64,000 nt of DNA, taken from Callorhinchus milii (taxonomy: Eukaryota). The notes under the pieces were generated by a model. That model searched no databases. It was not told the DNA's origin and worked only from the letters and a program-made list of their open reading frames with translations. Shown piece by piece: positions 1-60,600 of this stretch. A program made the translations under genes and the position numbers. Location of the stretch: NCBI RefSeq assembly GCF_018977255.1, contig NW_024704742.1:76076001-76140000 (forward strand). The letters are read 5' to 3'. How positions within the stretch are numbered: the stretch's first letter is position 1; each line of letters begins with the position of its first letter.

Positions 1-2201
1 AATGGCCTCCTTCTTTCTGTACATTTCTACAGTTCCATCACCAATTCACACAACCAAGTGTGATTATACTTGTGAAGGGCAATTCTAGGATAGATATTGG
101 GAAAGATTTATTTATGCCGAGGTTTAATCATCAGCTAGTTGAGGTCACCCAGGAAAGGTTATACAGCATCGGACCACTGGACGCGTTCAACAAACAACTC
201 AATGTTATGATGGGAAGATTAGTTGGATTTGTATTGAGGGCGGATAAGATTGAATGGGGTGAAATTGATATTCCTGACCAATAACACAATTGAGTTTTTC
301 AAACACTCTGAGATGTTATTTCCATGAAGAGGGATCCTAAACTAATAATGTTAACTCCTTGAGATACAAAAAGCAGCTGAAAAGGCATTGTAAAAAAGGA
401 AATAAAAAACAAAAGAAAAACTTGAGAAAGAAAATCAACATCCACAACTATAAATCTTTGTATAAACTCTTAAAGGGCTGTATCCCAGTGAGAGGAAACC
501 TGTTCCCAATTCCTGCTCTACTTCAATCGAGGAGCTTCTGCCTGACCAAGACACCCAGACCATGACTGGGAGAGATGTGTGGTTAAAGAGACAGTCCCTC
601 TGTATTTTCTCAAGCTGAAATAATGCTCTTCGGAAACCTTCACGTCCACCCCCACCCCCCATTTCCATCTTGTTATCCAATTTTTGTTACAATTTTAGAT
701 CAAAGCACTTTACATTAAAAGACGTCAGTTAAAAGCAGCCTTTTTGAATGAGAAATCAGAGGGAGATACCAGGTGTGGATGAAAAGGCAAGCCCAAAGGT
801 TAGAGAAGGCACTTTGGATGAAACAGCAGGCACCGACAAAACAGCAGCTACTAACAGAAGGGAGTTGTAGGATTAGCCTGATATAGCCTGGAATTGAAGC
901 TGAATTGGCATCATGCTGGAATTACAAAGGGTGCATAATCAGACTCGCAGATACCACGGTCAGATATAATGGGGTAAAAACAAAATATGATGATTATGGT
1001 GCAAATGGAATAAACAGCATTGTTAACATTAAAGTCATCGAAAACTACAGCATTTGTTACATCTCTCCAGTAAATGGAATTAAAGTGCATTATTGTGTCT
1101 TAATCACACTGAGATGTCTTAAAACACTTTATAGTAATGATAGCTACGTATAGTGACCTTTTTTGTAAGCAGCAGCCACTTGACTCTGATTCTCACACCT
1201 CAGAAGATGTATCAGATGTTCTATGGTCTGTGAGTCATTAAATGGGACATAGAACCATTGGGGTCCATGTGACTTAGAACAAAGTAAAATATATCTTCTA
1301 CCACTTTATATCTCATACCTTCATTTAACTTCATCAAATACCTGCCTAATTCCCTCTTGAATTTTCTGACCCAATTGTCCACTCTCATCCGTCTGGTAAC
1401 TTTTAGCCAGATATTCACCATTCTTTCTGTAAAGTACACATCCCTCTTCTGAGCTTAGGTCTGTGACCCTATGATCTAGTTTCTCTGCTCACATTAAACA
1501 GTCATAGAGTTCAAGATAACTGTTCCATTTTGCACCTTGAATACAAGAAGATAATAATAACAATAATAATAAATAATAATGCTTATTTTATTTTCAGTGA
1601 GTACTGTGAGGAGGATTGATTCCATCATATTCAGAAAGCTTATTGTGAGCGGACAAGGAGGGAGTCAAAAAGTCCTCTACAAAAACTCCAATAGTGTAAT
1701 AATGTAACTAAGTATTTAGAGGCTAAGTGCTCTGAGACACTACTCTGCGTGGAGGACGCTACATAAGTGCAAGTTGTTGTAGAGGTTGACTGAATGAGTT
1801 AGAAAGTGCTGCTGATGATTACATTGCTGTTTCCTATTAACAGGTGCAGTATAAAGAGCTCACACAGAGCCTTGATTCTGTTAAACAACTGATCCACTTT
1901 GCACTTTCCTAACACAGCAAATTGTCACATCCATAAACATCGCCTTCTCAGGCAAACACCCACCGAGAACACCAGAGAGGAATGAACATTTGAACAAATC
2001 CAGGTAAACCTTAGTGAAGTACAGTGATCACGTACAGCTATTGAAAGGTGGCATTGATCTGTATCTAATCAAGGACAACGCCTCAGAGTTGCAGCAGGGA
2101 AGTGTAACCCACACAGTCCACTACTAGGACAATAAACTGAATTCCCTAAATCCAACACCAATAAATCATAGTTCCTTACATACAAATAATTATTTACATA
2201 C

Positions 2202-2274
2202 CCTCCATCTCCGATTCATCGCAAACGTGCTTGAGGAAGGAAGCCCCTCTGTCCAGCACTGCCTCGTCCTCCAT
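2202..2274 (-). CDS. SLC4A4: SLC4A4 (electrogenic Na+/HCO3- cotransporter NBCe1-B/C) first coding exon; remainder of gene lies left of the window
   Basis: Translates [24 protein letters not shown](G), nearly identical to the human NBCe1-B N-terminus [25 protein letters not shown]. Acceptor ctacag|G-ATG (exon starts 2275) and donor G|gtatgt at 2201. Confidence 0.95.
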
Positions 2275-4247
2275 CCTGTAGTAATAGAACAGAAAGAAGG
2301 ATTGATCACACTTTTCCTGAAGACTGCAGTTTCTCAGTCTTGGTTGGAGAAAGTCAGTGTACAAACTGTTACTCATTTTGGGTCCTTTTGTCTGCTTTCT
2401 AGATGCGGAGTATCCAATCCACCACAATCCCACATGGTCTCACAAAGCTGGAGATCCTGCCCTTGAAAGGGCTGTGCTGCTTCTTGTAAACAGCCTAATC
2501 CAGGCCAGGTTGGCTCATTTATAGCAGATTGAGTTTGATGTGCTAGGATGTGACAGGTGGACCCCCAGGACCGGATGTTGTTTGTGGGGGTGGGATGGGA
2601 GGCTGGGAGGCAGGGAGGGAGAAGAAGAAATCCCTCCTGTCAGTCAACTACTAATGTCAGAAGAATTCATCCAATCCTCCCTCTGTCAGTCTCTTTAAGT
2701 TACGTGTTTGCTGGCTACTAATATGTCATCTCAAGATTATCTCCCACTATCAGCAGCAGGATTTTCAAGCCATAGATAGTATGAAGACACAGATACAACG
2801 CGTAACAAGATAGCATAGGTCCGTGGATGCCAGGCAGAACTCAGGCTCACTCCAACGTGGTTTTGAAGCACCTGTGCAGAAATACTAGAGCGAAGCCACA
2901 AATGGTACAATGAAAAACTGAATGTTTTTCCAACAGAAAAGATATTGGGACTGTTATAAATAAAATATGTTTATGGCGTAGTGTTTGGTGTGTACGTGTG
3001 TGTAAGGGGGCAGTAACTAGATAGTACAGTAGATTACAACACCCTCCTGTCAGCTATGCGACTTGAGTTCATGCGCAGTTCAGACTGACGGGATGAAAGG
3101 CTACATGCTCTCTGTGTTCCACCCCAGTTTAGGGGTGGAAAGTCTACAACATAGTAGTGGCTATGAACTGGCACAGGTTAACATCAACTAAAAGAGGAAC
3201 GACAGTAAAAATTGTTTATAGCATTTGAATTCAAGGCTCAACTGTGTCTAGGCTAAATAACAACAAACAACAAAAAATTACATTTGTATAGCGCCTTTCG
3301 TGTCAGGAGGACGTCCCAAGGCATGGCATAAATGCCATCATGGCACAAGCTCCACTAACTCGAACAAGAAAAATGGGACACCATGACTTTGAGCAGTATG
3401 ATAAATAACTCCTCACCCAAAGTGGCCACAAAATCCCACTGCCAAGTTACTCAGTCAACCTAAATTCTGGAGCTTTATAAACACATCAGCGTGCTGGCCA
3501 TCAGAGATCATTATTTATCCAACTCAAGCAAACATAAATCTATTCAAAACATTTTTGCCTATTCAATACTTTTGATGTCAAAATGCACGATATTCTTAAA
3601 TAAACCAAAGCGTGAGTGGTCAGAGATTCCTGCTCTTTCCTTTCACTGAGCATTATTTAAACTTGACATTATTATAACTTGGGTGCTACAGAGCTTATGT
3701 TTCTAGCATAGAGTTGCTCTTAGTCAATCCATGCCAGCAGTGAATCTGGCTAGAGACACACCCTGCTCTTTGCCATTTGGGGTATTCAGCAGCTGCAACT
3801 TGAACACATATTGATTTCACTGACCTGCAGAACACACAAAGCTGCAGTCTAGAGTGGACAGCAATGCCAGTCAGGTCAATTCTCCATTCTCCACAACATA
3901 ACTATATTGTCATTGATGAATGAGAACAGGTCACAGACCTGGAAAGGTAGTCGAGCGATTTTAACATCACAATACTTGATCCAGAGAATTCTGCACTTGG
4001 CAGCGATGTGAGACTAGAGGTTGGACCAGCAGTGCTAGAACCTTTCTCTGTTACATATTGCTTTAATGACTTAACTGGCAATTGGACATTGACAATGAGA
4101 AGAAGCAAGTATAAAAAGTATAAAAAGAAAAGTGATTGGGTAGATTTTGGAAGTGTAAGGTTCAAATAAAGAAACTAGTTAATCAAAACTGTGTTTGTAC
4201 AAAGATTACATTCTCTTTACTATTACTGAATTTTAATATTAGTAACG

Positions 4248-16542: not shown

Positions 16543-17121
16543 GTCCAACTCCCTGACACAATCCAACTCCCTGACACAGTTCAAACACCTGACACAGTCC
16601 CACTCCCTGACACAGTCCAAACACCTGACACAGTCCCACTCCCTGAAACAGTCCAAACCCCTGACACAGTCCAAACCCCCGACACAGTCCAAACCCCCGA
16701 CACAGTCAAACTCGCTGACACAGTCCAAACCCCTGACACAGTCCCACTCCCTGACACAGTCCAACTCCCTGACACAGTCCAAACCCCTGACACAGTCCAA
16801 CTCCCTGACACAGTCCAACTCCCTGACACAGTCCAACTCCCTGACACAGTCCAAACCCCCGACACAGTCAAACTCCCTGACACAGTCCAAACCCCTGACA
16901 CAGTCCAAACCCCTGACACAGTCCAACTCCCTGACACAGTCCAAACCCCCGACACAGTCAAACTCCCTGACACAGTCCAAACCCCTGACACAGTCCAACT
17001 CCCTGACACAGTCCAAACCCCTGACACAGTCCAAACCCCTGACACAGTCCAAACCCCTGACACAGTCCAACCCCCTGACACAGTCCAAACCACTGACACA
17101 GTCCAACTCCCTGACACAGTC
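16543..17121. repeat. 18-bp minisatellite, about 32 copies (gtccaaacccctgacaca / gtccaactccctgacaca)
   Basis: Directly visible tandem array. Confidence 0.97.
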
Positions 17122-19559: not shown

Positions 19560-19982
19560 CCCGCCCTGTGCTGCCCTGTGCTGCCCTGCCCTGTGATGCC
19601 CTGCCCTGTGCTGCCCTGTGATGCCCTGCCCTGTGATGCCCTGCCCTGTGATGCCCTGCCCTGTGCTGCCCTGTGATGCCCTGCCCTGCGATGCCATGCC
19701 CTGCCCTGTGCTGCCCTGTGATGCCCTGCCCTGTGCTGCCCTGTGATGCCCTGCCCTGTGCTGCCCTGCCCTGTGATGCCCTGTGCTGCCCTGCCCTGTG
19801 CTGCCCTGTGATGCCCTGCCCTGTGATGCCCTGCCCTGTGCTGCCCTGTGATGCCCTGCCCTGCCCTGTGCTGCCCTGCCCTGTGCTGCCCTGCCCTGTG
19901 ATGCCCTGTGCTGCCCTGCCCTGTGATGCCCTGCCCTGCCCTGTGATGCCCTGCCCTGCCCTGCCCTGTGCTGCCCTGTGCT
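19560..19982. repeat. Compound pentamer satellite (gccct / gtgat / gtgct units)
   Basis: Directly visible; source of the multi-frame QGRA/ALPC ORFs. Confidence 0.95.
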
Positions 19983-20900
19983 CTCGCCCCCCAGCGATTG
20001 AAGAGATGCAAACACGTGGCAGCGGAGTGATGAGCATCAACACCACCCAACTCTATTGTCCTTCCTCACGTTCACAGGAGCCCACGGCCGCGGCCCCCAG
20101 TGAGGAGCATCTCCACTGAGGCACTGAGGCACTGAGGGACAGGTCTCTCTCTCTCTGTCTCTTTGTTACCGGCATCTGCTGTGGTGTCTCTCTGCTCCGG
20201 GTTTAGTGCAGAGGCGATCTCAAGCTCTCCCTCTCAATCGGATCGCTTTTTAAAATGTTTCACACTCCCCCCCTCCCCCCCCCCCCCCCCACACACACAC
20301 ACACACAAGTAACTCAAAACACTAACCACGTTTGCAACGCTGTCATCTACTTTCTCTCTGTGTCTCTCTCTCACACACACAGACACACACACACACGGGG
20401 TGAGAAGCGAAGCGCCGACGGGTCGGGTTGAGCGCTGCGCCTTGTGTCGGAACAGCAGCAAAAGCGACTCGGATCTCTGAAGGGACTCTTTTTCAAAAGT
20501 CTCCCAACTCTCTGCCCTCCCGCTTCCATCTTACCTCGGACTGGATCTGCGCTGCAGCCGCTGGTCAGTCTGGGTGGAAGTGGTCAAAATCCCAGGGAGA
20601 GGGGGAGAGGGAGAGGGAGGAGGGAGGGAGGGAGAGAGGGAGGGAGGGAGGGAGAGACAGTGAAAGCCCCGACCAGCTTTCTGACCCTTGGAGTCGGCAA
20701 GACTTTCACACCATGAGGCTGTGGCTACAAGACGAGCATTTCCTTCCCCTCCTCCTGAGACTGTGGGCTTGTGACTCAGAGAGGACGCCGAACTCACTCA
20801 CTCACTCACTCACTCACTCACTCGGTCGGTCAGTGTGTGTGTGTGTGTGTGGCTGCTTTGTGTCTGTGAGTGAGAGTGGGTCAGGGAGTGAGTGAGTGAG
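19980..20900. promoter_or_regulatory. CpG-enriched, GC-rich putative SLC4A4 promoter region
   Basis: Many CpGs (e.g. gaagcgccgacgggtcgg, gcgctgcgcc) against a CpG-poor background; (GGGA)n purine tract at ~20595-20655; flanked by microsatellites. Confidence 0.5.
20535..20800 (-). other. SLC4A4: Candidate non-coding first exon (5' UTR) of SLC4A4; 5' boundary uncertain
   Basis: Strong minus-strand donor CCGAG|gtaaga at 20535/20534 within a CpG-enriched region upstream of the acceptor-led coding exon; mammalian NBCe1-B also has a non-coding exon 1. Confidence 0.55.
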
Positions 20901-41757: not shown

Positions 41758-42072
41758 TAATAATAATAATAATCCTTGCCTTTGATATAGTGCTTTTCAT
41801 GTATTCGAGACGTCTCAAAGCGCTTCACAGAATATACTGTAAAGTGAATTGACTGTATATTTGTGGGTGAAACTCGGCAGCCAATTGCGCACAGCAGTGT
41901 CCCACAAACAGTCGTGGATTGAAGAGACCAATTTATTATTGTTTTTTATTTTCTTGAGGAATTATTATCAGGCGTGTGGAGTAAGGAAACTTGCCCAACA
42001 TTTTGCCCTTCCAGGAATCAAACCCAGGTCTCTCGCTTGAGAGGCGAGTGTTCTAACCACTGAGCTACAGGA
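41758..42072 (-). mobile_element. tRNA-headed SINE with (TAT)n tail; copies at ~17940-18228, 18770-19035 (+), 26300-26605, 26610-26943, 41260-41620, 44245-44570, 59625-60000
   Basis: Minus strand begins ctcctgTAGCTCAGTGGttagaacactcgcc...GGTTTGATTCC (Pol III A and B boxes); the 3' part is shared with the DeuSINE; copies are highly similar to each other. Confidence 0.85.
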
Positions 42073-44906
42073 GTGTACGGTATGAGTGACAGCAAGACCT
42101 TTTGCTCAGCGACACTTCACAGTGTGTTTCACGGAGCCTTGTGGATTATGGCTTAAGATACGTTTATAAAAAGAGACTGCAGTAATTCATGGTTGCCACC
42201 CAGGCATTCTCCATAGGTCTCGGAAAGTGCTTCATGACATTTTAAAATACCTGCCGGCTGCAATTCTGCTGATAACCGCCACAGGAAAATAACACTTTTT
42301 ACAATCCAAGTGAAATGAAGGATGAGGCTTTGAAATCACATAATAGTACATTAATCTAGTAGCACATGAACTTCACTTTTTTATATCAGAACACACAGTC
42401 AGCAGCCCCTTATCTATCTTGTATAACTGTTCCTGGAAAATACAAGCAATACATCTGCTTTAGCTACAAATTTTAAAAAATTACACTCTTGCCTCTAAAT
42501 GTGGGTTCAAGCCCCAGAACTTTTTTTAGATTGTGGTCGGGACTTTGAGCTCGTCTTGGCTGATACGCTAAGGCAGTTCTGTGGTGTGTGGCAATGGTGG
42601 TGGTTGGGAGGGGGGTTTGAGGGCCTCATTGTTTGAGGTGCCATTCTTCAGATAAAACATTAAATCAAACCTGGCAGCTGAGGGCCTTCTTTATTCAGAA
42701 TAATACTGATCTTGTGAAGAGGAACATTTAAAAGGCTCACTAGTCATATTACAATCTCCTTCTGCCCCAGGAAGGCAGGAACAACGATTGATTAGTGAGA
42801 GCAGGATATCTAAGGTGTCCTGGCTCAGGTGATAGCACTCTTCCCTTAAATCAGAAGCTTATACGCTGCATTGTTTGAGGTGTTGACCTTCAGATGAGAA
42901 GTTAAACAAAGGTCCCATCTGCTTGTTCAAGTGTATGACCATCACTATTGCAAAAGAGAAGAAAGTTTCTCTCGGTCTCCTGGCCAACAATCCTCCTGAG
43001 AAAATGGGCGCTCATCCATGACTGTTTGTGGGACATTGCTGAGTGCAAATTATTATTACATTCTGTTTTTACTTTCATTTTTTAAAAAATGGCATTTCAT
43101 CTTATACTTCACAGATGTGTCAGCCTGGCTCAGTTGGTTGTTTTCTTCTCTCCTCTCCTGAAGGCATTACTACAACTATTGATTTGTCCAGACCCACCTA
43201 TAATGTACCACCCTGCTATGATTGGATTGGGTTGTGGTCAGAAAGCTGTAGCCTTAAGCTCCACTTAGGGAACTTTGAGCCCACTGTCAAGACTGACACT
43301 CCAGTCCAGTGCTGGGAGAGCACTGCATTGTTGGAGGTGTGTCCTTCAGATGAGACAATAAATCGAGATCCCATCTGCGGTATTTCAGTGTACAACAGAG
43401 ATCCACTCTACTTAAAATGAGAAGGGAATTTCTCCTGTCGTTTGGGCCAACATTTCCATAGATTTAAAAAAAACGGTAATTCCTTTCTTAGCTTGTAGGA
43501 CATTGTTGTGTACATATTGGCTGCCACATTTGCCTACAACTATCCAGTCATTATATTTTACAGTAAATTCTGTTTAGCGCTTTGAAATATTTCAAGATTG
43601 TGATAAGACTATATCAAATGCAAGGATTATTATTGTGACCAAACACTTGCTCTCCAGGCTAACACATGAAGAATAGTCACTTGGTTGAGGTGTGCTAGGT
43701 CTTTGGAGCCTATGAACAGTGCTCCAGCCAGAGCTACCACTTTCAGCAAAAAATAGGGGAAACGTTTTGTGGGGAGAAAACAATCTATGAATAATAATAA
43801 AAATGTGCCTTGGATTCAATGAGATGATAAGGCACTCTTATTATATTTTATAACTCAATTTCAAAAAGCAACAAAGGGTTATAGTGAATTAATATCAATA
43901 GTACTGCAATATAAAATGCTTCACTGTAGCCTGAATTTGCTTAGAATGCAGTCAGACTGTGGACCTAATTTGCAGCCTGCTGGATTCCCATCAGCTTGGT
44001 TTTAGCACTAAAACAGCTGACTACTGGGTCATCAAGTAACTGCCAATGTCACTGCAAAATAATCTTGCCTTTGTAATGCCCTTTATCACATCGGAACATC
44101 TGAAAGATCTTCAGAGATATTCACGGACAAGTGACTGTTTTTGTTGGCTAATTCAGAATTTGTTTAACACAAACAGNAAAAAGCTACAAGATGAACAACC
44201 ATTTAAACTGGAGAAGTGTTAGCCAGGGCACTGGAGTAACTTTATTATAATAATATAATCCTTGCATTTGATATAGCGTCTTATCACATTTTCGAGACGT
44301 CTCAAAGAGCTTCACAGAATACACTGCAAAGTGAATTGACTGTAAATTTTGGGGGAAAATGCGGCAGCCAATTGCGCACAGCAGTGTCCTACAAACAGTC
44401 GTGGATTGAGCGACCCAATTGTTATTAAGGGATTATTACTGCCGGAAAAGCGATCTGCTAATCCACTAACAACCGGGATCCTACTTACTGCTAGGTAAAC
44501 AGAGGTGTGTTGAGTAAGTAAACTTGCCCAACATTTCATCCTGCTGGGAATCGAACCCACGTCCTATCGGCTCAGGATCTTTAACGTCCACCTGAACAGT
44601 CAGACACAATCTCGGTTTAATGTGTCATCCATATGACGGCACTCCTGACAGTACCCCTCCCCTAGTCTACACTATTGTAATTCTAGCCTGGGATCTTAAG
44701 TTAGGTGTGGGGTTTGAACCCACAACCTTTTGACCCAGAACAAGAGTGCTGATAATTGAGCTAAACTAACACCTCATGTTCCTTTCAATTGCATTTACTC
44801 GTTAGGTTTTTAGTTCTAATTTGAATGCAATTATGAAGTTGCTTTCAATTGTAATAAATTAAAAAAATTAAAGCATTCTTGAAAATATAAAAAGTTGCTG
44901 CCTTAC

Positions 44907-45022
44907 TGCATAGTCTTATGATGAAGTTAACATTCGTGTTTATAATGGAACGTTTCCAGGTACTTCATTAAAATTCCCTGGTCTTCATGTCTGCCTCTCA
45001 GGAAAAGCCTATTCATACATTC
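44907..45022 (-). pseudogene. DCK: Deoxycytidine kinase (DCK) exon remnant with premature stop
   Basis: ttttccag|GAA TGT...ATG CA|gtaagg, 116 bp. Translates [37 protein letters not shown] versus human [39 protein letters not shown]. TAA at 44929-44927 replaces W. Lies between MOB1B and SLC4A4 on the same strand, as DCK does in human. Confidence 0.85.
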
Positions 45023-47789
45023 CTGGAAAATACAGTGAAACAAATATAATGAGATATTTGAGGGAATGGATTATCTAGGAAGATAGACACTGGCCTTTCA
45101 TCTATGGGCCTGTTTGAATCCGCACGAACTGAGGGATGACAATCATCTGTTTCGAATTTGGGACAGTTTCAACCCAACTCCTGGTGAACATAAGCTGAAA
45201 GCTGCTTTTAACTTGGAACCAATTGGCTATCACATTCAGCCAGGCCACAGGATAGCTCATCAATGTTCCACTGGTTCAGTGTGAAGAATGTTCTCTGCTG
45301 GGCTGAGTAGATAATAAGAGAGATTCAGATGAAGAACCTTTGGCCCATTTGATATCATCTTTCCAGAATATCCATCCAATTGTCTTCCTTTTATAGCATC
45401 AAATTGTCCCTTAAATGAGGAACAAATTACATTTATAATGGGATGATGTCCAAAAGGTGCTGGACAGATAAGGATTTGCACCCGAGCTCCTGGTTGGAAT
45501 CAAGAGGGATGGAGGGTAAGGGGGCGGGGATGGGAGGCATGGTCAAAGAGGAATGTCTTAAGATAGGCTGTGAAGGAGGCCAGGGAGGGGGGGTGAAGTG
45601 GAGGGATTCTGCAATTGAGTTCCAAAGGGTGGGGGCAGAAAGGCAAAGGCCTGGTCGCTGATGGTGGAGAAGGCAGTGGGGGGCACAGAGGAAGCCAGTA
45701 CCCGCTGAGTGGAGAGAACAGAGAGGTTGGTTTGGTGTAATTAGGCCACAGAGGTAGGGAGGAGCAAAACCATTAAGGGCTTTAAAAGTGAGGGCAAGGA
45801 TTTTAAACTCAATCCTCTCCGGGATAGTCATTCTTCATAAGATGCATAACTCACAATTTAGTCCAACCTGAGTCTTACTGCTCTGTGACCTGTGTGACTT
45901 CTATTCTGTTAGCACACATCACACCCATCAAATTCCCTTCCATCTCTAGAGGTGCTGGCACAGTCCAAGTACACGTTTACTGGAGATGGTCACTTTCTGT
46001 ATCTTGCTCAAATGCCCATTCTCCCCAAATCTCTTCATGCACGCCTTCTCTTCCCTGCCCCCAAACCCTGATGCAAATGTAACTTTTTGACTGTGTAGTG
46101 TGTTTGATACCCTCAAACACTTCCTTCTTCCCACCCTGCTCGAGAATACATTGTATATTGCTATCAGCACTCGATCCTCATCATCTTTGTGGGAGTGTGT
46201 CCAGATGTCCACTTTATGTGATAGATCTTAAATAACTAAGTTTTGTTCTGCACGTCGCTGGTCCCCTCCACTCCACCATCAGCGGCCGTGCTTTCAGCCA
46301 CGACACCTCAAAACTTTGGAACTCATTGCCTCAATCCCATGACCTTGCCTCCTCTTTGCCCATCTTCAGCATCGCACCTGAGGATTTTCGTCTTCGACTG
46401 TGCCTCCAGTCGTCTCCCCTCTCTCCCTGGCTGTGTCAAACTCACCCATTGTTAAGCACTCCGAGAGGTTGACCCTCAAGAACAGCAGTAGATAAATGCA
46501 ACTTGTTGTTGTATTGGGTCATTTGCGGCAGGGCAGAAGAAAACTAGGGCCGAGCGCAAGTTTCCAACAGGTTTACAAAATACCAAACAGCAGTGGAATC
46601 CTAGCTAACTTTCTCCGCCTATGGTACGGTAACTGAGACTAATTATAGCTACCAAACTGGTGCCCTGTCACTCAATCTGGGCACTAGGTCAATAATGATC
46701 GGGTTCAGAGGTTAGTGGCTCTACATTATTGTGAAATATGAATAGATAAAAATGACACATTTTAGCCAAAAAATATCCTTGATCCAAGGTTCGCTGACAG
46801 GATCACGCCATCTGTTGAAGAGGCTTAGAGTTAATATCACAAACCAGAGCAGCTGTAATGCAAGACTATCCGACAAATAGCATCCCACATTCCAGATACA
46901 ACAGGCCTGTGGATTAGTTTCACTGCCTACACAGAAATCCCTACGATATTCAGTCCTGCTGCAGGGTGGAAAAAGAAACTCTTGATCTGGTCCTACCAAC
47001 ATGGCAATCGGAGCCCTGTCACACATAGAAGTTTGGAGAGAAAATAAAGATAGCCCTCCCAATCGGAGAGCTGCTCTTAGCCCTCAGCCAATGTCATTCT
47101 CGACGTGAGAGGTGCCATACAGCAACACACCACATGCTGATAAGCATTGTGCGCAAGTGACTGCCACATTTCACCCACAAATAGTCAATTCACTTTACAG
47201 AATATTCTGTGAAGCTCTCTGAGACATCTCAATTACATGATAAGGAACTATATCAGATGCAAGGATTATTATTATAATACCTCTTTTAAAAGCATCTTCC
47301 AAAATGATTCACAGCAAACCAGAAAATTCAAACACAAAATGCAACCTTGTATTGTAGGTGTCGACCTGGCTGAGTTGGTAACAATCTGGCCTCTGAGTCA
47401 GAAGGTTGACGATTAAGGTACCAACCGTGGTGCTCAAAGCAGTTAGCCTGACATTCCTGTAGCAGGGATGGGGCAGTGCCACCTTTTGGACATGCCGCCC
47501 TTCGGATGAAATGTTAAACCGAGGTCCCACCTGGCTGTTCAGGTAGACATTAAAGTTCCCATGGCACTATTTGAAAAGGGAAAGGAGTTTCTCCTGGTGT
47601 CCTGGCCAACAATCCCCCAAATATAAAGAATACTCATTCACTTCACGGCTGTTTATGGGACGTTACTTGGAAGATCTAACAGAGTACGTTTTGTACGCCA
47701 CACGAGTACATTTTAGCTATAATCCAGCAACCTACTCCCCCTCCCATTAGCTCAGATCCATGTGTTAAAAACAACAACCGAGACAAGTT

Positions 47790-50700
47790 TGCTTTGTTTT
47801 TGATAAACTTTAATTTTCTTTATAAATAGCCTCACAACATAAATCCTATAAGTTTAAATATTTGAACTTTTTTCCAACCCATCACAATACAACAAGCTGT
47901 ACACATTATTTACATATATCTGGCAACTATGTTATCAAACAAACACTAGAAGAGCTGGTAAAATTAAAATAACTTGTCAAAAAGGGCTCCTCTTCGGATT
48001 GCCAATTACAGTGTGTCTGCTTTAAGTGCGTCAAAGCTGTGAATCCAGCAGCATTGTTGGTACAGTTAGTGTATTCTACTGATTCCTCCATGTCCCCAAA
48101 TTCATTGAATTACATTTGAAATGGGGGAAATTATTTTCTCCCAAGACACAATATCTAGCTGATGCAGAACTCAGAACCCTCTGGTCCCAAGTTAACTGAC
48201 GGACCAACCCCTGCATGGTGTTAGCTAACATCTGCCAGGTGTTGGTATAGATCAGTTGGTAGCACTCTCTCTTCTAAGTCAGAAGGTTGTCACTTTGAGC
48301 TCATAGTCTAGTCTGAAACTCCAGTGAGTGCTGAATATGCTGACGTTGTACACCTAATACGTCTTGAGTTCACAGTCTAAGCGGACACTCCAGCACAGTA
48401 CTGGGGGATCGCTGCATTGTCGGAGATGCCATCATTTGGATGAGACTTTAAACTGAGGCCCTGTCTGCCTGCGCAGATGTATGTTAAAGACCCCATGACT
48501 CTATTCGAAAAGAGGAGGGAGTTTCTCCCAGGGTCCTGGCCAACAATTCTCCAGATAGAATGAGTCATTAACTTTATGGATGCTTGTGGGAAATTGCTGT
48601 TGGTTGCCATGTTCGCTTACATATACAGTCACTAGTTTGCGGTAAATCTTGTGAAGCGTTTTGAGATGTTTTGATGATGTGATAAAGCGCTATATCAAAA
48701 TGCAAGGATTATTACATCTAGGCCGTTGAGTTAATTTTGCCTGTGAAAATTTTGGCCACAAATTATTACTAAGAGTTAAGCATCTACATAAATGCTTGCT
48801 TAGGAGTGAACTCAAAAATGAAGGCACACTGGCATAGGCTTGGTGACTGACCAGAACTAATCCTGCGTTTTGCTGTGTAGACCACTATCCCAGTCAGGTT
48901 TTTCAAAATACATGTACTGTAGGAGGCTGCTGGCGAAGATTATATAGGAGATATCTTAACATGTTATCACTGCTTGTTCTGTCAGATGGTTTGGGGGGGA
49001 ACGGATAAAGAATCCTAACACAAACCCCCTTAAACTGGATTCAAAGACCAAACACATTTGCACAGTACAAATCAATATTGGTTCAGTTTTGTAAATCATG
49101 ATGTGAATTTACAGCATGCAGTGCCCAGACTGCAAAATGCTTTGTGAATCAGGCTCCTTGCCATCAATCAGGCTAGACAGGCTATATGCCTTTTCCACAT
49201 TTTAGTTCCAAAAGCCCTCAATAGACACCCAAACCCCAAAGCTTTGTTTATAGTGTCCTCCAGGGACCCACAGTATTGCGATACATTTCCTGCTTTCAAG
49301 GCTGATTGGACATCTTCCTGGGCATGGTTCACAGGACCTCCCGACATCTGTAGAGACTTAGTAACCGCTGGAAATGTGGACTGGCTGGCTTTCTGTGCAC
49401 GATGTACAGGGGCTTATATATACTGAGGCTTGGCGGTGTATTATAACTCAATCCTTTAAACAGGGTAACATGGAGTCTGATTTTCTGGATCCAACCAGTG
49501 TTATAATGGTGTCAGGCTATAGCCCACCTTTCAACTCAAATATAAACTGCACTGTGTCAAAATCCTAAAAATTGCTGCAATACAATTTGCCGTATATCTA
49601 GGCAAACAAATCCCAGTCTAAACTACACTCTGCTAATGTTCAAATACCAAACCACTACAACTTTCAATGCATAATTCAAAGAATAAAATCTGACCCCGCA
49701 ATCAAACCCCCCCAAAAAACTCAATCTTAAATAGAGTTTAAAATACAGCATCACAATGGGGGAAAGGGGAATTCATCCTCAGTGAGTCAATAACTATAGT
49801 ATCTATAGTTTAAAAGTGCAACTCTTTGGATACAAGATGAATGAATCAAGCCTATGGCCTGAAATTCCACCCATTCTTAGTCTGCAAGTTCTTGCTGCCA
49901 TAAACATTATCTGTGTGCCAGCCTGGTTCTCGCTTCTGAGTCAGAAGGTTGTGAGGTCAAGCCCCACCCTGGGAATTAAACTCATTGTCCAAACTGACAT
50001 GCCAATGCAGTGTAGGTGTGTGTCGCATTGTCAGAGGTGCTTGTCCTTCAGCTGAGACATAAAACCGAGGTCCCGTCTACCTGCTCAGGTGGACATTAAA
50101 GATGCCATGGCACTATTCAAAAAGGGAAGGATGCTTCTCTTAGAGCCCTGGCCAATAAGCCCCCAAATAAAATTGGTCATTCATTTCATGGCTGTTTGTG
50201 AGACATTGCTGTGTGCAAATTGGCTGCTTCGTACACCCAAAAATACAGTCAATCCACTTTACAGTGTATCCTATGAAGCTCTTTGAGATGTCCTCTGGAC
50301 ATGAAAGGTGCTATATCAAATGCAAGGATTATTATTATTATTATTATGCAGATTAGTGAAAAATTCATTAATTCCACCTAAATTTGGAAGCTGTTTTTTC
50401 TGAAGAAGGGTTTAGGGATTCTTCCCACTCAGCTCCCGTTAACCTTGCAAACCAAAGTCACAGTGTGGTCCTAGCTGGACAAGTAGTGTGAAGCTTGCCA
50501 GACAGTGCTCAGAGTGGCAATCTGTGCCAGAAAGGGTAGCCGTAATCTGAACATTGGACTTATTTAAAAAACAACTTGTTGTTGTGATGGAAAACCTCTA
50601 GGGTGGGTATTCTGGAAGAATTAAACCAGATGGGCCAAAGGCTGTCTTCATTGGAACAAATCTTGTGATCACACTTTCTGGAATTAGGTAAGATGGATGC

Positions 50701-53189
50701 GTCCCTCCATAGAGAGTGTGAACTCAATTCTATTACCTATGATAAATTTCCACTTGCAGTTGGCACACATATGTATATGTGGAACTCACATACATATGTG
50801 GAACTCTCACTCTGATTTGAAGTTACTCTTAAACATTGCTAAGGGATTCAGCATGCGTCAGGCACCTAGCTAACCAAATGCAAAAACAAACATTTTGACT
50901 GAATTTAAGAATATTTCACAATTCTGCATAACCTAAAGTTTTAAAACTAAATGATCCAGGTGGAATTTCATACCTGTCCTGTTTTTCTGGTTTGATATAT
51001 CTGAACGCAAAGAGGATATTTTCTCCATATTAAACTGTGTGTTTTCACCTAGACCATTTAGTTTTAAAACAAGATCCCAAGCTTCTTAGCCTACAAAGAC
51101 AATATTAACTGATGCAACATAAATCTCCTTTAAAGTACATCAGCCTCTAATAAGGTGCCAGTGACAAGTAAAGGTGATGGTTTTACTAACGGAGACCTTA
51201 ACAACTACAAATGACATATGGATAGTGCCTTTCACACCTGGAGGAAGTAACCAGATTACGGTCCACGTTACTGAGGTTACACTCAATCCCGCTGCTGATT
51301 TGATTTAAATTGCTTGTAAAAATCTACCAAGGCTGAACAAGAAGGAATTATTATTATTATTAGGGACTAAAATGAACAAATTGCAGAAATTATGCTTGAA
51401 GTAATTCTCAAGACGCAGCCTGTTTTACGAGACACAGAGAAGTAGGTTGCATAGTTAGCCAGAGATCAGCCATGTAAGAAATACAGCTTTAGGATATAAG
51501 TGTTTACTAGTTAGCTAATCAGAACTCGAGCTCGGCAAAATCGTTGTTATTTTCACATGCCGTTTTGATATGTGTGTATTTACCAATGCAGTTTCTTTTA
51601 AAAGGGCATCTTTAAGACATAATTTATTAAAAGGGTGTATTAATTTACTCTTATGACAGCCTACATTATTCTTTTGAAAGCATCAGATTAAAAACACTGG
51701 AGCGGAGGATATCCGAACTTGAATAACCAGCTAACCAGCGTACTCAATAATCATGCCTCAACGCACCATCATAGAAACCCCGAGGCACTTCAAAGGTTTT
51801 ACGAGCTGAGCTCAAGTTCTGAATACCGAGTAAAATACCACTGAGGCTAAGAAAATGAATCACACTCATGAAAATAAGACCAGACTTTACCATCAATATC
51901 CAGCCCAATCCATTTTGCAGGCAGTACACAGAATTACATAGAATGCTACAGCACAGAAACAGGCCATTTGGCCTTACTAGTCCACGGTCAGTGTTTATAC
52001 TCCAAATGAGCCTCTTCCCCTCCTAGACTCCTCTCCCTTACCCCCTCTATTCCCTAAAGCCCTGTAATGCTGGTATCAGAACTATGTAAGTATGATAGAA
52101 GCAGTGTATTGGAAGAAACTTATTGACAGTAGTGTAGAAGATATTCTCTTGCGATAAAAGCTTCAGATCTCTTACTTTACTCTCAATCTCCAGTGTAGCC
52201 TTTACAGATCTGGTAGAGTGAATGGATAACATCTGGTGTATCCATGAACTAAATATATTTAATCAACCTAGCATTGCAGGGTTGTATTGACAAAACAATG
52301 TCCCGACTATAACATAAATTACCAGCATCAATTGTACCATTAAACTATTAAGAGACAGAAATTCCAGCCTAGTCGATATTTAGTCTGTTTTCTTCGCATT
52401 TTAGACCATCAAGAATTAGACAAATTCTTACATACGGTTTTAATTTAATGCCAGTTTTTTGAAAGCTGAAGCATTTGCCCACAAAACACAGTCACCCCAC
52501 TTTACAGTAAATCCTGTGAAGCGTTTTGGGACATCTCCCGACGTGAAAGCGCTACACCAATTACAAGGATTATTAAGACTGAATAATAATCCTTGTAATT
52601 GATATACCGCTTTCTACAAGCTCTGAAGTGCTTAGCCAATTGACTAAATATAGACTCATGTGGAATTTCTACCCCTTAGTATAGAGTGGTCAAAAATACC
52701 CTGCAGGGAGCATCTAAGGAACCAGCAGCCTTTTCTCAGTGAGAAGCTTTGAGAAACAAACCTATTTTTTCGACTGAAAGCTTTCTAGTCCAGCAGTGTC
52801 AAGCCCAGAATGCAATGTTGCTTTGCCAACCCATCTAAGTCCACGTGATGAAGCAGTTCAGGCACTTACTTGGATATAATGTATCTTCTACTGGGTGCCA
52901 ACAATGAATTGCACATCCAATGGGTATACGAGGATCTTAGGCCTCGTGATGCCTTAGGCCATCCCAAGTACATAGTTCACCACACACAAGCCTCCCGTCT
53001 AAATGAAGTCCTGTAACACCTACCAACACCATCCTTTTTGAAGCCTTCAAATAAGAAGTCAAGTTTTTGTCAACGCCAGCTCAGGATTAGCCAGGCTGCT
53101 CATACAAACCAGCACTGTGCTAGTTTAAAGGAAAAAAAATGCCTTGAAGAATAATGACGAGACTGTGTTTGTCCTTGTCCACTTCCTGT
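47790..53189 (-). other. MOB1B: Possible long MOB1B 3' UTR with candidate distal poly(A) signal
   Basis: Minus-strand ATTAAA at ~47809-47814 followed by GU/U-rich cttgtctcggttgttgttttt; another AATAAA at ~51623-51628. Extent is inferred, not shown. Confidence 0.3.
48235..48715 (+). mobile_element. Deu-domain SINE (tRNA-like head, Deu core, L2-like tail); many other copies e.g. ~11620-11970, 13050-13380, 25340-25900, 29670-30280, 43120-43635, 47360-47670, 49915-50346, 58625-59035, 63660-64000
   Basis: Core gctgcattgtcggagatgcc..ggatgagac.ttaaac.gagg.cc.gtctgcc..gttaaaga.cccatg.c.ctattcgaa..ggagtttctccc..gtcctggccaa resembles the DeuSINE (SacSINE1/AmnSINE1) core; tail gcgctatatcaaa.tgcaaggatta. 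Confidence 0.8.
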
Positions 53190-53267
53190 TTATCTGTCTT
53201 TTGTAGTTAGTTTCTCGATCAACTCCTGAAGTGGAGCCAACTCTCTCCTGTCTATGAGGTTAAACTC
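53190..53267 (-). CDS. MOB1B: MOB1B last coding exon (EFNLIDRRELAPLQELIEKLTTKDR*)
   Basis: tttcag|GAGTTT...AGA TAA; contained in ORF 53190..53393. Confidence 0.96.
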   Translation of the reverse strand, partial: EFNLIDRRELAPLQELIEKLTTKDR

Positions 53268-53749
53268 CTGAAAATGAAAGATAAGCAGCATTGAGACACA
53301 ATTCCTGAACGTACTTGCGCTGTACCCGAAATTCACTATGTACACAAAAAGCAGTTTCGCATTTGCACGTCCCATGCAGGTATCTGACACCAAAATAAAG
53401 CTCCAAGCTGGTCAGCCAATGCCAGCAGTTACACAGGAATGTACAGGGCCATTGGGGTCCATCTGGCCAGCAGAGGTTGTTCACCACTGATGTGAGTGAG
53501 GATGCCTCTGTATATCTATCTACACATCCCATTTCCCTAGTCTCCACATTGCTTTAGGTTATAGCCTCAACTCCCTGCCTCCAACCCTCCGACTCCCAGA
53601 TAAACCAAGATACAGGCATCAGGTTCTGCAATGTAAGATGCGTGCACACATTTGTCCTTAAGGATGGATGTCAATGAATTCCTTGGTCTTTCTTTTGATT
53701 CACTGAACCTGGATTCGTCTTACAACCATTCCGCCTGGGCCATTCCTAC

Positions 53750-53913
53750 CTGAACAAAGAAGATAAAGTGCTTGAAGGAGGTATTTAAGTGGGCCTCTTC
53801 CTGCAGCTGGATCACAGAGTCAAAGTGTTGATGGTAAATGTGGGCGTACACACGAAACAGGCGTTTCAGGATCGTCTTCCCCACCGACATAAAATTCTTT
53901 GGGAAAGGAACAC
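53750..53913 (-). CDS. MOB1B: MOB1B exon 5 ([54 protein letters not shown])
   Basis: ccacag|GTGTT...GTTCAG|gtagga; 164 bp; contained in ORF 53720..53932. Confidence 0.96.
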
Positions 53914-54380
53914 CTGTGGAGAAAGCATACATAACCCGTCACCGCAATGCCCTCGTGGTAACAATATTTCACACACACTGTGAATCCCAACACATCATTG
54001 TGCGAGCAGGCGTGGAGGAAGACAAACGATTAGTTCTTTTTTTAGAAAGAATATATTTTCTCTTCCAATGATCCAACCCCCAACTCGGGGGCAAATCCTT
54101 GATTATCCAGTACCTTGGGACATTCCTCCCAATGTGAAAGCTGCTATATAAATGCAATTTGTTATTGTTATTTGTCTGTGTGTTCAGGTGGGCATTAGAG
54201 ATCCATGGCACTCTTGGGTACATCGCTATGTGCAAAATAGTTGTTGTGTTTGGCCTCAAAAGATACAGTCACTACAATATACAGCAAAGGGCTTTGAGAT
54301 GGCCTTCTGACATGAAAGGTGATATATTAATTGAAAGGATTATGATTTTGATATTGGAATGGTCTGATTTAAATGTGTAC

Positions 54381-54514
54381 CTATTTTGGAAGGAAAGAGA
54401 GCCTCATCATCCAGCTGATCTTGTACCCAGGTCATCAGGTAGTCAATGTACTTTGGTGCCGAACATTTGATGGGTTTCTTAATATTTGTTCCGTCAGCCC
54501 AGTGATACTCATAC
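54381..54514 (-). CDS. MOB1B: MOB1B exon 4 (YEYHWADGTNIKKPIKCSAPKYIDYLMTWVQDQLDDEALFPSKIG)
   Basis: atctag|GTATGAG...AAAATAG|gtacac; 134 bp; canonical MOB1 sequence. Confidence 0.95.
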
Positions 54515-55701
54515 CTAGATGAACAGCAAGAAAGAGAGAACCATTCCAGTCATACAAGACAACCAGTTAATCGTCACTACATACATTATCCAACTTTTAT
54601 ATTAACCTTCATATTCCAACACAATAAAACACAAAAATAATAAAAAAATAAATAAAATAAAAATAATTCTATTTCCAATAGGGCAAATTCTTTTTCACAT
54701 ATATCGATGGTTATAAGGACAGGGAGGTGGTGGAAGCAGAAAGTGTTGATTCATTCAGATGCAAATTAGAAGCAGAATAGGTTTATAAATAGCACTTTTC
54801 ACATCTTCGAGATGTCTCAAAGCGCTTTAAAGAATATACTGTAATAATAATAATAATCCTTGCATTTGATATAGCGCTTTTCACGTCGGGAGGACGTCCC
54901 AAAGCGCTTCACAGAACACACTGTAAAGTGAATTGACTGTATATTTGTGGGCAAACACGGCAGCCAATTGCGCACAACAGTGTCCCAAAAGGTTTCAAAG
55001 GGGAATCAGACAAACATCTGATAAGGAATAATATAAATTAAAATGGGGGGTGGGGGGAGAGGAGAAAAAAAGCAAGAGAGACAGACTGAACGAGAGAAGC
55101 AACACATAGACAATGGATCAAACAACCTCCTTCTGTACTGAAAAACTACGATTTTTGCACCAAGGTTCCCCATTCTCAAACCTCGGGGGAAAATAACAAG
55201 TGTAAATTAGAGCGTCAGAAGAAATGAAACCCCGCAGAATCACAGCGCATGCAGCAATCTGACAAGAGGTGAAAAGATAGTTTGCTGCCTCCTGCTCAGC
55301 GATGAAACATATGCAACTGAAATAGTCACTTTGCTGGCTGTCTCACACCCTGAAGTCAGTGCAAAAACAGAGTAAAACATTCAGACACCAGATACTGTTC
55401 AAGCTCAGATAAGCCAACATTCCCATTAAAGTAAACAGCTTGCTCTTGCAGATCGCTGGCACTTTGCTCAGTAAATCTCTGCTAAAAGTTTGTGCCACTG
55501 TTTGACTTGGGCAAAACGATAATTAATTTTGCATGGCCTACTCAACAGCAAATTGCATTTACATAGAGCTCTTCACACAAGATAGCCTCTTAGGGTGCTG
55601 CTCAGCAAACAGACCCTCAGATAGTGACAGGCATAGAAAATAGTTCAGTAAGAAAGCAGAGAACAGGCACTGAACTTGAAACTTTGAAACCTGTGACGCA
55701 C

Positions 55702-55795
55702 TTTGGCCCAGCTGACATGAGGGGGCAGCTCTCCTCAGTACAGAAGTCCGTTATTGTTCCATACAGCATGTTGATCTGGTTAAAGAAGTCCACAG
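55702..55795 (-). CDS. MOB1B: MOB1B exon 3 ([32 protein letters not shown])
   Basis: aaacag|CTGTGG...CCAAA|gtgcgt; 94 bp; phases fit exons 2 and 4. Confidence 0.95.
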
Positions 55796-55938
55796 CTGTT
55801 TAAAAACAAAACATACAAGTGGCTATATTAATATTAGTAGAAGGAGATTTCAAGTGCAGTTTTTTTTTAATTCTTAAAAGAACATATAGAAAACCGGCAT
55901 GTTTTTAAAAAGCAGCAACTTAAACATTTTTGGGGTAA

Positions 55939-56006
55939 CTGATGACCTGGGTACAAGATCAGCTGGATGATGAGGCTCTCTTTCCTTCCAAAATAGGTAC
56001 ACATTT
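55939..56006 (+). repeat. Inverted 68-bp perfect duplicate of MOB1B exon 4 3' half plus donor site
   Basis: Exact reverse complement of 54371-54438; explains the + strand ORF beginning MTWVQDQLDDEALFPSKIG. Confidence 0.97.
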
Positions 56007-57472
56007 CTTATTGTTGACAGTAATTATCCTTACATTTGGTATAACGTCTTCCACATTGGAGGATATCCCAAAGCGCTTCTCAGGATATACTGTGAATTGC
56101 AGTGACTGTGTGATTTGTAGGCAAACACCAATTTTGTGCATAACAATATCCCACAAACAGCCATGAAATGAATGACCAATTTTATTTGGGGATTGATGAT
56201 TTGTTTTCTTGCTTATCATCTACACTAGATAGTGATCCATATATATGTGGAATTCTCTGTCCGGTTTGAATACTCTTTAAGCATGGTGATGGGTTGTGTC
56301 AGACACCCGGCTGTCCAAATAAAATCCACACACCCAAACAGAAAGGAATTTACATTCTGCCCTTGTATCAAGTACAGGTAGAAATTCCACCCAAATCTTT
56401 CTATAGCATTTTAAGCCAGGCAGAATTTCACAAACAACAACAATTGCACTTATATAATGCCTTTCATGTCAGGAGTACATCCCAGGCCGCTTGACAATGA
56501 GGGATTTGCACCTGAGCTGTGGGTTGGGATCAGAGAGCAAGCGGGTATTGTCTTGGATGTCTGACAGACAATCCATCAGGACAGCAGAGGTCCTGGGGCG
56601 AAGGTGGAGGCAGAGAGATAAGAGTTGGGTGTTGCCCAACTCTTATATCCCCGAGCGAGAGCATGTAAATATTAAAAAGGAGCCCTTACAAAAGTAAATT
56701 ATTTTCTGTTTGGGCGTGTGGATTTTATTTGGTGCGAGGGTTAGAGGAGAAGCAATTGGTGGAATTATTTTAACAAGAAAAACATGATCAAAGTTAAGGC
56801 TAAATTCAACAATTAAGCAAATTCTGCACACACTTTGAAATCCTATGAAAATACCCCTTTGTAACATGCTCCGATATAGCACAGTCATGTCGTGGACCTG
56901 ACTGAAGTCAGTACACGTCTGGTTTACTACGCTCACTGGCGAGGAACTGGCCATGCACATGCAAGCAGTAAGTGATATCAGCAATGACCCGGACCACCGA
57001 GGCCGCCACAGTGAGCTGGCTCGATTCCGACATTCTCGATTCCAGCCAGTTCAGCTCCATGGAGATCCCGCTTACCTCTCCCCCAAAGAGGATAGACAGC
57101 ATTAAAATGTGGTGTCTCAGTTTATAGCCTCAAACCACTGCTTTATAACAGAGTCAACCTGTTGAGTACAACAATAACAACGTTCATTTATACAGCATCT
57201 TTCGCAATCGGGTTATGTCTTGGAGATTTTTATAAGACTGGGATTATACACCAAGTAAGAGAGAGGGAACCGAGGGAGGTGGCCCCAGAATCATTCAAAG
57301 AGTTAAGTTTTGAGGCAGGACAAAAAAACAGAAAGAGTGGGGGCCACTAAGAACAAGGTAGAATTTCTCTCCCAAAGAATCTGAAGTCAAAGAGACTGCT
57401 CAGATTGTACATGATAGAGACTGCACCAATTGTACACGATGAGCAGTTTTGAAAGACAAACTTAACCCTTAC

Positions 57473-57639
57473 TATTGACTGCGACCCATTCATTTAGATC
57501 TTCGCCATCGGGCAACATGACAGCCATTCGCAGATTGCCGCTGCCCAGTGTAGCTTCCGCATGCTTCAAGAGCTCATACTGATGGGACCCTTCCGGAATG
57601 TTCTTCTTTGGCTTAAACGTCTTCGATGAACGGCTTCCG
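57473..57639 (-). CDS. MOB1B: MOB1B exon 2 (GSRSSKTFKPKKNIPEGSHQYELLKHAEATLGSGNLRMAVMLPDGEDLNEWVAVN)
   Basis: Manual translation matches MOB1B-type residues (GSRSS, RMAVML, EWVAVN). 167 bp, donor A|gtaagg; expected acceptor reads ttgcAT instead of AG. Confidence 0.93.
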
Positions 57640-60600
57640 ATGCAAAAACAAGAAATGGCTGTAGTTTAAGAGCAGCAACGCAACACAGGCACACACTCAA
57701 GCTGTTACACATAACCTTCACTTTGAAGAGATAGAGATTCAAACTAATCCCCATATATACATCACTACTCCTATAGTCACCACTGCCTCGGTAGATCCCG
57801 CTACTCCCATAGGCTATTAGTCGATTGGAGAATCTCTTTTGGGGTAATAATCACTCCCAAAATAAATAATAAATGTGATAGCCAAATCCATGACTGCTTG
57901 TGGGACATTGTTGTGCGTAATTGGCTATCACATTTTGCCCTCAAAATATAGTCACTCCACTTTACAATATATTCTGTGAAGTGCTTTGAGATTTATCAAT
58001 GACGTGATAAAGCGCTAGTTCAAATACAAGGATTATTATTATTAGTTAACGCTATTATTAGACTCCCAAACTGTACATACACCACTGCCTGTGTATGTGC
58101 CGCCGTCTGCATACGCCTGTTAGATTGGCTCGTGTTACCTTCTCGGGCTCAGATCGGGTACATTTCTAGGCACTTTCTTTCAGTGTTAACTCAGCATGGG
58201 ATGCAAACAAAGTACTGTAGTCAAATAGGAAACCTTCAGATGACTCACACGTCCACCTGATCCATTCTGCTCAGTGAGAAATGGTATAAATGGCACAAGG
58301 TGGCAGAGTTAGTATTAGGATGGGGGTGGGTCAAGCAATAGCACACCACTATCTAGACAACGCTGGCACAAATCCCTTGATATGAAGAACACTTTTCACA
58401 AAGGAAAAAGGAATCCCCTTTCTCAGTCCATTTGAATGCAGCAACTGCAGATATCTGCTTCCCTGGCAGCTACAGTACCAGCTGTGACATGGAGACGCAG
58501 GTTCACTAACTCCATTTGTTTATTCACTCTGACAAACTGAAAGCCTGTATGCTCTATTCCCTCCCTCCAGCATTTCTATTGCTGTTTCTTAGAACAAATA
58601 AACTCACCCAACAAAAGCACTGTGTGTCAGCCTGGCTCAGTTAGCAGCACTCTTGCCTCCGAGTCAGAAGGTTGTGGGTACAAGCCCCCCATCAGCACTT
58701 TGAACTCACATAGTCTAGGCTGACACTCCAGCGCAGTGCTGTTGGAGGTGGCATTCTTCAGATGAGACATTCAAACGAAAGTCCCATCTGACTGTTCAAG
58801 TGGACATTCAAGATCCCACGGCAGTAGTCGAAAACATTTCTCCTGGTATCCTGGCCAATAATCCCCCAGATAAAGTTAGGCATTCACTGTATGGTTGTTT
58901 GTGGGACAGTGTTGCATGCAAATTAGAGTTCCCCTACAAAATACAATCACTACACCTTACATTAAATCTTGTGAAACACTTTGAGACATCCCTGCCAACA
59001 TGAAAGCTGCTGTATTCAATGTAAGGATGATTATTGTGGACCACACTGCTGAATGTAAATTGAAGAGGGATAAGATTCAGCAATGTCAGCCAGCCTCTCC
59101 TCCATTAAAACACCAGACATATTGATTCAGCAACAGGGTATCAGAAGGAGGCAAAAAGGGCCATTGTGAGTGTGCTGGCTCCCCCGTTGCAGTGATCTGC
59201 TCGAATACCATTCCCTCTGCTCTTTCCCGTACTTATCAAAATTAGTTTCCTCAAGTATCCATTCAATTCTCTTTTAAATGCTGTTATTGATTCAGTTTCG
59301 ACAGCCATTTGTGGTGAGGAATTCATTCCAGAGTCAAACAATGTAAAAAATTTCTTACAAGCATGCTCTTTGTGTTCTGGTAATAAACCCCACTTTAGAC
59401 CCTCTTAAAAACAATCCTTGCATGTGCACATTTGTGACTGACTTGCCGATTAGTGGAAATAGCCCTTCTCTATTTACTCTGTCAAAACCATACATTATTT
59501 TGAATCTATTTTATGTGGATCGATAAACCAGCAACGATCTTCCTGTTCCCAGGATCACAAGTCCATCAGATCTATGGCTGTACACTGCCTAAGGGAATTG
59601 GGGACTGACTGCACAATCTGGGCATAATAATAATAACCTTTGCATTTGATATAGTGTCTTATTACATCATCAAGACGTCTCAAAGCACTTCACAGAATAT
59701 ACTGTGAAGTGACTTCACTATATAGTTTGTGGGCAAAACGCTGTAGCAAATTGCAAACAGCAGTGTCCCACAAACAGCCATGGATTGAGTGACCAAATTA
59801 TTCTTATTTATTTATTTGGAGGGATTATTACTTCTGGAAAGCAATCCAACAATTGACTAACAACAGGGTTTCTACTTACTACTAGATAAACAGAGGCCTG
59901 TAGAATAAAGAAACTTGCCTAACGTTTCAGCCTGCCCGGGAATCAAACCTGGGTCCTCTCGCTTGTGAGGTGAGTGCTCTAACCAATATGCTACAGGACT
60001 CCCACTTGTTCAATTCTCCACTGGTCCCACCCATGTTGATGGACTGCACCTGGTGGGGCTAGCATGCAATACTGGAGAAAAACATCAACTGAGAGTTTGT
60101 GTTGTGTGCGCACGTGTGGGGTCCTCTTGTGCACCATTATAACAATAATCCTTGCTTTTGATATAGTACCTACCTCTATAACCTCCTAACCCCTACCATC
60201 TTGTTCTCTCCCTCCGCTCAGCGGGCTCCGGCCTGCTTCACGTCCTCCGCCTCACTCGCCCCACTATTGGTGGGTGGGCCTTCCGCCACTCTGCCCCCAC
60301 CCTCTGGAACTCCATCCCGCAGTCCCTTTGTCTCGACCCCTCACTCGCCACCTCCAAGACCCATCTCTTAGACCCTCCTCTTCAATTGTGCTTTTGATCT
60401 CCCTGCTTCCCCCCTGCCCCACCCCAACTCCCAGCTCGGGTCCGTAACTCTGTCTGTCCAGTGCCTTGGGACGTCCTCCCGATATGGAAGGCGCTATACA
60501 AATGTAATTTTGTTGTTGCTGTAGTGACTTCCCACATCATGTAGATGTCTCAAAACCTGGAAAGTCATGTTCTCAAAAGGCATCCATAACCGGAGCCAGC

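Follow-up and report, generated by a model that had tools for sequence, protein, structure and literature searches.

Gene Order at the Locus

In the window (i.e., the whole 64,000-nucleotide stretch of Callorhinchus milii DNA that was analyzed), MOB1B and an N-terminal coding exon of SLC4A4 lie on either side of a solitary exon that resembles exon 5 of deoxycytidine kinase (DCK), hereafter the relic, and all three are on the minus strand (Table 1). The human genes at this place follow the order MOB1B-DCK-SLC4A4 on one strand, and the preliminary description of this DNA had accordingly placed the exon at the syntenic position of DCK, which the mapping of both neighbors bears out. The name SLC4A4 is our assignment from an N-terminal motif that we take to be diagnostic, together with the PF07565 hits; the Band-3 domain exons start approximately 50 kb past the window start. 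The same adjacency is found in the fused MOB1-DCK gene models of a catfish and a rodent (P0127 and P0161).

Table 1. Features of the MOB1B-SLC4A4 interval in window coordinates.
Feature	Position	Strand	Evidence or remark
MOB1B coding exons 2-6 (upstream neighbor)	53190..57641	minus	Four spliced joints in RNA-like contigs
MOB1B 3' UTR, ~5.4 kb, with several repeat copies	47790..53190	minus	ATTAAA signal at 47814
Gap from MOB1B 3' end to relic	45023..47790		2.8 kb; expected place of DCK promoter and exons 1-4
Intact splice acceptor and pyrimidine tract of relic	45023..45050	minus	Sequence read directly
Putative DCK exon 5 relic	44907..45022	minus	116 nt, no indels; lid region, human residues ~184-222
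TAA replacing conserved Trp	44927..44929	minus	Trp in 182/182 working DCK/DCK2 rows
Intact splice donor (GTAAGG) of relic	44901..44906	minus	Sequence read directly
SLC4A4 N-terminal coding exon (downstream neighbor)	2200..2276	minus	N-terminal motif; PF07565 hits

The contig cover of the MOB1B 3' end stops at 47791-47948 in four RNA-like runs. At least 1,182 bp of the gap between this end and the relic are repeats, and neither a CpG island nor a DCK exon signal was found in the gap, where the observed/expected CpG ratio is 0.17-0.53, compared to 1.06 and 0.97 at the first exons of DCK2 and DGUOK, respectively. Elsewhere in the window, the last part of a MOB1B coding exon, together with the donor site, recurs as a 71-bp inverted copy (55936-56006 vs. 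54371-54441; 98.6% identical) within an upstream MOB1B intron, and two long tandem-repeat tracts (16396-17275 and 19196-20119) contain repetitive open frames on both strands.

Upstream of MOB1B are a RUFY-type gene and, on the opposite strand, a qRRM gene (GRSF1-type), which we take to be RUFY3 and GRSF1, respectively, and the order on C1 is RUFY-type gene, qRRM gene, MOB1B, relic, and SLC4A4. On C13, where 147 of 214 open reading frames were scanned, a FYVE/RUFY-type gene comes first, followed by an oppositely oriented hnRNP-H-type gene, then DCK2, and then an SLC4 gene. Given that the two blocks agree in order and relative orientation, DCK2 is probably an ancient duplicate at a locus of its own rather than a DCK that has moved. 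No PF03637 (MOB) match was found on C13 among the 20 listed, and none between the hnRNP-H-type gene and DCK2 (block at 6.255-6.315 Mb); a MOB1 duplicate in the DCK2 block was likely lost. On C28, a MOB1 gene is found ~110 kb from DGUOK.

Structure and Lesions of the Relic

On the minus strand, the bases just 5' of the relic read ...TATTTTCCAG. The minus-strand exon of 116 bp with AG and GT sites, its translation, and its TAA are all as given in the preliminary description, and the proposed match to the DCK lid region is substantiated by the 31 residues ahead of the stop, which match human dCK at an E-value of 1e-8 and human dGK at 6.5e-4. Exon 5 of DCK2 on C13 and exon 5 of DGUOK on C28 are equal to the relic in length (116 nt) and phase. 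The relic and the organism's own DCK2 exon 5 are 67% identical in DNA with an excess of third-position differences, which number 13, 6, and 21 at codon positions 1, 2, and 3, respectively, over 38 codons; this pattern is a coding signature. With a DCK exon-5 profile, the relic scored 137, and the next-best place on both strands of 174 kb scored 38.7. A genome-wide search with PF01712 also recovered the exon (E-value of 0.004). A homologue search with the relic itself as the query returned zero candidates. A processed pseudogene was rejected, as the relic is a single exon with splice sites at both ends and no joined exons.

The relic shares exon length, phase, and position with vertebrate DCK (PF01712; human PDB 1P5Z; shark DCK-like XP_067902694.1), and the lid positions R188, R192, R194, and Y204 are kept. 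It differs from vertebrate DCK in being one exon of seven, with a stop codon at an invariant Trp and without a promoter-like CpG island.

To count the damage, 212 proteins were collected, 193 of them with 150-330 residues were aligned, and 182 filled exon 5; these working rows were divided by FastTree clade into 64 DCK and 118 DCK2 proteins. Among 18 near-invariant columns, the relic breaks three, i.e., the Glu corresponding to human E197, a Leu, and the Trp, each of which is present in 182 of the 182 other rows. Working rows that break 0, 1, and 2 of these columns number 155, 24, and 3, respectively, and none breaks more than two (n = 182). The relic also loses a Pro that is found in 64 of 64 DCK rows, and a K>T change at its residue 24 is likewise derived. 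The alignment upholds the earlier statement that Trp is replaced by TAA and that further conserved residues are altered (E>D, P>L, E>K, and L>F). Of the 118 working DCK2 proteins, one also has the E>K change. The residue that is changed to Asp in the relic, Glu197, touches the sugar hydroxyl of the substrate (PMC11053780). With the ancestral residues that were assumed, the relic is at least 10 base changes away from a working-type sequence. Two codons, 44927-44929 (Trp to TAA) and 44969-44971 (Pro to TTA), each need two changes, and both can be read as adjacent CC>TT/GG>AA doublets, which may be chance.

Phylogenetic Placement and the Surviving Kinases

In a 40-row tree, the relic fell within DCK (99/97), beside the elasmobranch DCK rows (94/44), and another maximum-likelihood tree also placed it in DCK (95/85). 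The trees agree with the earlier identification of the exon as DCK, while AU tests over 37 columns rejected none of the alternatives (p = 0.13 and 0.17 with DCK2; p = 0.12 with DGUOK). Identities of the relic were 20-26 of 38 residues to DCK and DCK2 rows and 15 of 38 to the C28 gene, with a tie at 26/38 between Heterodontus DCK and Carcharodon DCK2. The relic residues N4, H12, and K36 are found in 17, 2, and 19 of the 64 DCK rows, compared to 2, 0, and 4 of the 118 DCK2 rows. We infer, by position first and by tree second, that the relic is orthologous to DCK.

Of the 17 matches from the PF01712 search of the genome, C13 (at 6.28 Mb), C28, and C14 hold four each and C6 holds three; the other two are the relic and one weak stray match. 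By translation, the C14 and C6 matches presumably correspond to TK2 and NDUFA10. When the genome was searched with two shark DCK proteins, there were 9 matches for one and 12 for the other, and apart from a single match (E-value of 6.3) they fell on C13, on C28, or at the relic. None of these three queries, of which the best candidates were scored, uncovered an intact DCK in the assembly, in line with the earlier proposal that DCK was lost at this locus and that a dead exon remains.

The C13 gene is DCK2 (the organism's own copy, XP_007903717.1), with an intact frame of 264 residues. It grouped with DCK2 in the 40-row tree (94/82) and in the other tree (96/86), and an AU test of its placement in DCK gave p = 0.06. 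DCK2 aligns end to end with human dCK (E-value of 1.6e-116), and 18 of the 19 pocket and lid residues checked match those of human dCK, the exception being Met85, which is Leu; the list of 19 was drawn in part from PMC11053780. These features suggest that DCK2 likely supplies deoxycytidine salvage. The relic shares family, exon structure, and a paralogous gene block with the DCK2 of non-mammalian vertebrates; the relic is broken, whereas DCK2 is intact, on another chromosome, and in a separate clade.

The C28 gene is DGUOK, as it groups with DGUOK-type proteins (100/100), and human dGK is the top PDB match for two of the three C28 exons tested, with exon 3 slightly favoring dCK. The first exon of the DGUOK-type gene (575-581 kb of C28) opens with a short basic stretch directly before the kinase domain, and the long N-terminal extension of a Hemiscyllium DGUOK-type protein (P0214) is absent from the six joined C28 exons. 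Salvage had been proposed to depend on a paralogue such as DCK2 or DGUOK or on a relocated copy; both paralogues were found in the assembly, and a relocated DCK was not.

Fate of the Remaining Exons

No DCK exon other than exon 5 was found on C1 with tblastn, a profile HMM, and a frameshift-tolerant exon scan over 174 kb. The absence of any other convincing DCK exon, noticed earlier from the letters of the window, therefore extends over 174 kb and, genome-wide, over the assembly. Weak tblastn candidates at 51101-50994, 40752-40714, 40570-40451, and 46429-46337 were dropped as noise-level, the first of them also being inside the MOB1B 3' UTR. In controls for the frameshift-tolerant scan, paralogue exons 2-6 scored 78-265 and noise was at most 39 for exon 5; exon 7, being too short, went undetected in the controls as well, and exon 1 was borderline.

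When DCK2 exons were decayed neutrally in simulation, exons 2, 3, 4, and 6 were detected in 100, 100, 100, and 99 of 100 trials, respectively, at 0.1 changes per base; at 0.2, the corresponding counts were 93, 100, 99, and 78. The score of the relic falls between the simulated medians for 0 and 0.1 changes per base (156 and 107, respectively). As exons 2, 3, 4, and 6 would still be detectable at this level of decay, they were likely deleted. We propose that one deletion would have removed exons 1-4 along with the DCK promoter and another everything from exon 6 onward, so that at least two deletions, in whatever order relative to each other and to the stop codon, would have taken both flanks, and that the relic is most likely functionless and decaying neutrally. 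The loss would be placed after the split from sharks and rays; within chimaeras, Callorhinchus parted from Chimaera phantasma and Hydrolagus about 187 million years ago (PMC12952989). That one exon with both splice sites should survive between two deletions is somewhat odd.

Alternative Explanations

The disabling lesion is real and not an error of the assembly. In each of four DNA runs from a single study, checked over 44000-46000, one contig covers the relic exon with zero listed differences inside it, including the reported TAA at 44929-44927, and the flanking SNPs vary among the runs; contigs also bridge the one N, at 44177. As the run that matches best may come from the very sample that was assembled, the weight lies with the other three. 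Outside 44000-46000, a collapsed stretch in the interval is conceivable, as is a DCK copy that the assembly lacks. Given this agreement, the breakage of Glu197 and of the Leu, both otherwise invariant in 182 rows, and the missing remainder of the exons, there is next to no chance that the stop codon stems from faulty assembly or from a rare allele in a gene that is otherwise alive. It is also very unlikely that the relic arose as a stray copied piece of DCK2, or of an intact DCK absent from the assembly. The AU tests leave placement with DCK2 standing, the genome-wide searches scored their top candidates only, and parts of the genome may be missing from the assembly; however, the relic is at the position and on the strand of DCK, its 67% DNA identity to the organism's own DCK2 exon 5 comes with a third-position excess, and its N4, H12, and K36 are commoner in DCK rows than in DCK2 rows. 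Moreover, no Callorhinchus DCK protein was found among the 88 matches listed (93 candidates collected).

A third reading, which we consider improbable though less so than either of the foregoing, accepts that DCK is dead and holds that exon 5 was kept by selection, as an SLC4A4 enhancer or as a non-coding exon in a transcript that either reads through from MOB1B or forms the SLC4A4 5' end, whereas the rest of the gene decayed past recognition. Exon 5 is indeed the sole survivor, free of indels and with both splice sites intact, and simulated decay of 0.6 changes per base hid the remaining exons in 89-98 of 100 trials. Against this reading, the approximately 10 amino-acid-changing base changes fit free decay, and by simple arithmetic four preserved splice bases and no indel are expected at ~10% decay; the lack of SNPs within 116 bp is uninformative, as only ~1 would be expected from the density in the flanks. 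No RNA run was listed as containing 44600-45300, which says nothing either way; in run X5, probably RNA, a fraction of 0.44 of the sequence words of 44600-45300 is present, and the depth of the bin that holds the relic, which includes repeats, is 8.2 in X5, 2.3 in X8, and 0 in each of two others (42000-58000). None of the 15 joints listed, out of 155 in RNA-like contigs, which cannot show absence, uses the splice sites of the relic.

The evidence thus points to a broken exon 5 of DCK between MOB1B and SLC4A4, which is very probably all that can still be detected of the gene; the promoter and the rest of its exons were likely deleted, and DCK2 likely covers its role. A functional dCK gene would have an open frame of seven exons with the P-loop, the ERS motif, and the lid, whereas the relic has a stop codon and exons 2, 3, 4, and 6 were not found. 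As judged from sequence, the locus is very probably a unitary DCK pseudogene reduced to one exon and likely buffered by its ohnologue DCK2.

DCK in Sharks and Rays

Full-length DCK-like proteins are found in Heterodontus and Pristiophorus (isoforms of 260 residues). Other sharks gave no DCK match among the 93 candidates collected, which carries no weight at that sample size. Both DCK-like models of Hypanus sabinus (P0213 and P0357) turn into unrelated sequence after exon 4, the single isoform seen in Narcine has its exon 4 out of frame, and Rhincodon has a partial model on a 51-kb contig. The Hypanus, Narcine, and Rhincodon models came from 50%-cluster representatives, a kind of search that favors odd isoforms, and these oddities may come from faulty annotation or assembly. 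In three of three species pairs, elasmobranch DCK shows more differences than DCK2 does (32 vs. 19 of 161, p = 0.07; 23 vs. 14 of 112, p = 0.15; 11/103 vs. 9/102), so that faster evolution of DCK than of DCK2 is a trend only.

It is conceivable, albeit rather doubtful, that several lineages of cartilaginous fishes are each losing DCK on their own, by deletion that left exon 5 in Callorhinchus, with Hypanus models that end after exon 4 and an elasmobranch DCK that drifts faster, which would mirror the situation in mammals and leave lymphocyte salvage to DCK2.

Implications of the DCK Loss

Unitary pseudogenes and reciprocal loss of ohnologues are known after the early vertebrate genome duplications, in which DCK and DCK2 would themselves have arisen. 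In this pattern, a single-copy gene decays where its ancestor stood and a duplicate of ancient origin lives on, and the relic is a case of this kind. It differs from the mammalian version of the pattern in that the copy lost in Callorhinchus is the copy that mammals keep. Losses of dCK2 and dGK were reportedly described by Konrad in 2014 and Mutahir in 2016, and no mammalian name was found among the 120 DCK2-led matches listed. Our literature search found no report of DCK loss in chimaeras, which surveys of vertebrate deoxynucleoside kinases might mention; in the silver chimaera genome paper, the main text and one supplement do not contain "dck."

As DCK2 keeps the dCK pocket, the loss of DCK was likely nearly neutral. 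In mice, dCK is needed for the development of T-, B-, and red cells, in which knockouts fail (PMC12162289). Given these failures, the loss in Callorhinchus is most simply explained by redundancy. The mechanism of the loss is ordinary, and XP_007903717.1 of Callorhinchus, formerly labeled "deoxycytidine kinase," is DCK2. Callorhinchus provides a natural case of reciprocal ohnologue retention, and a jawed vertebrate with adaptive immunity but without DCK implies that DCK2 can likely stand in for DCK.
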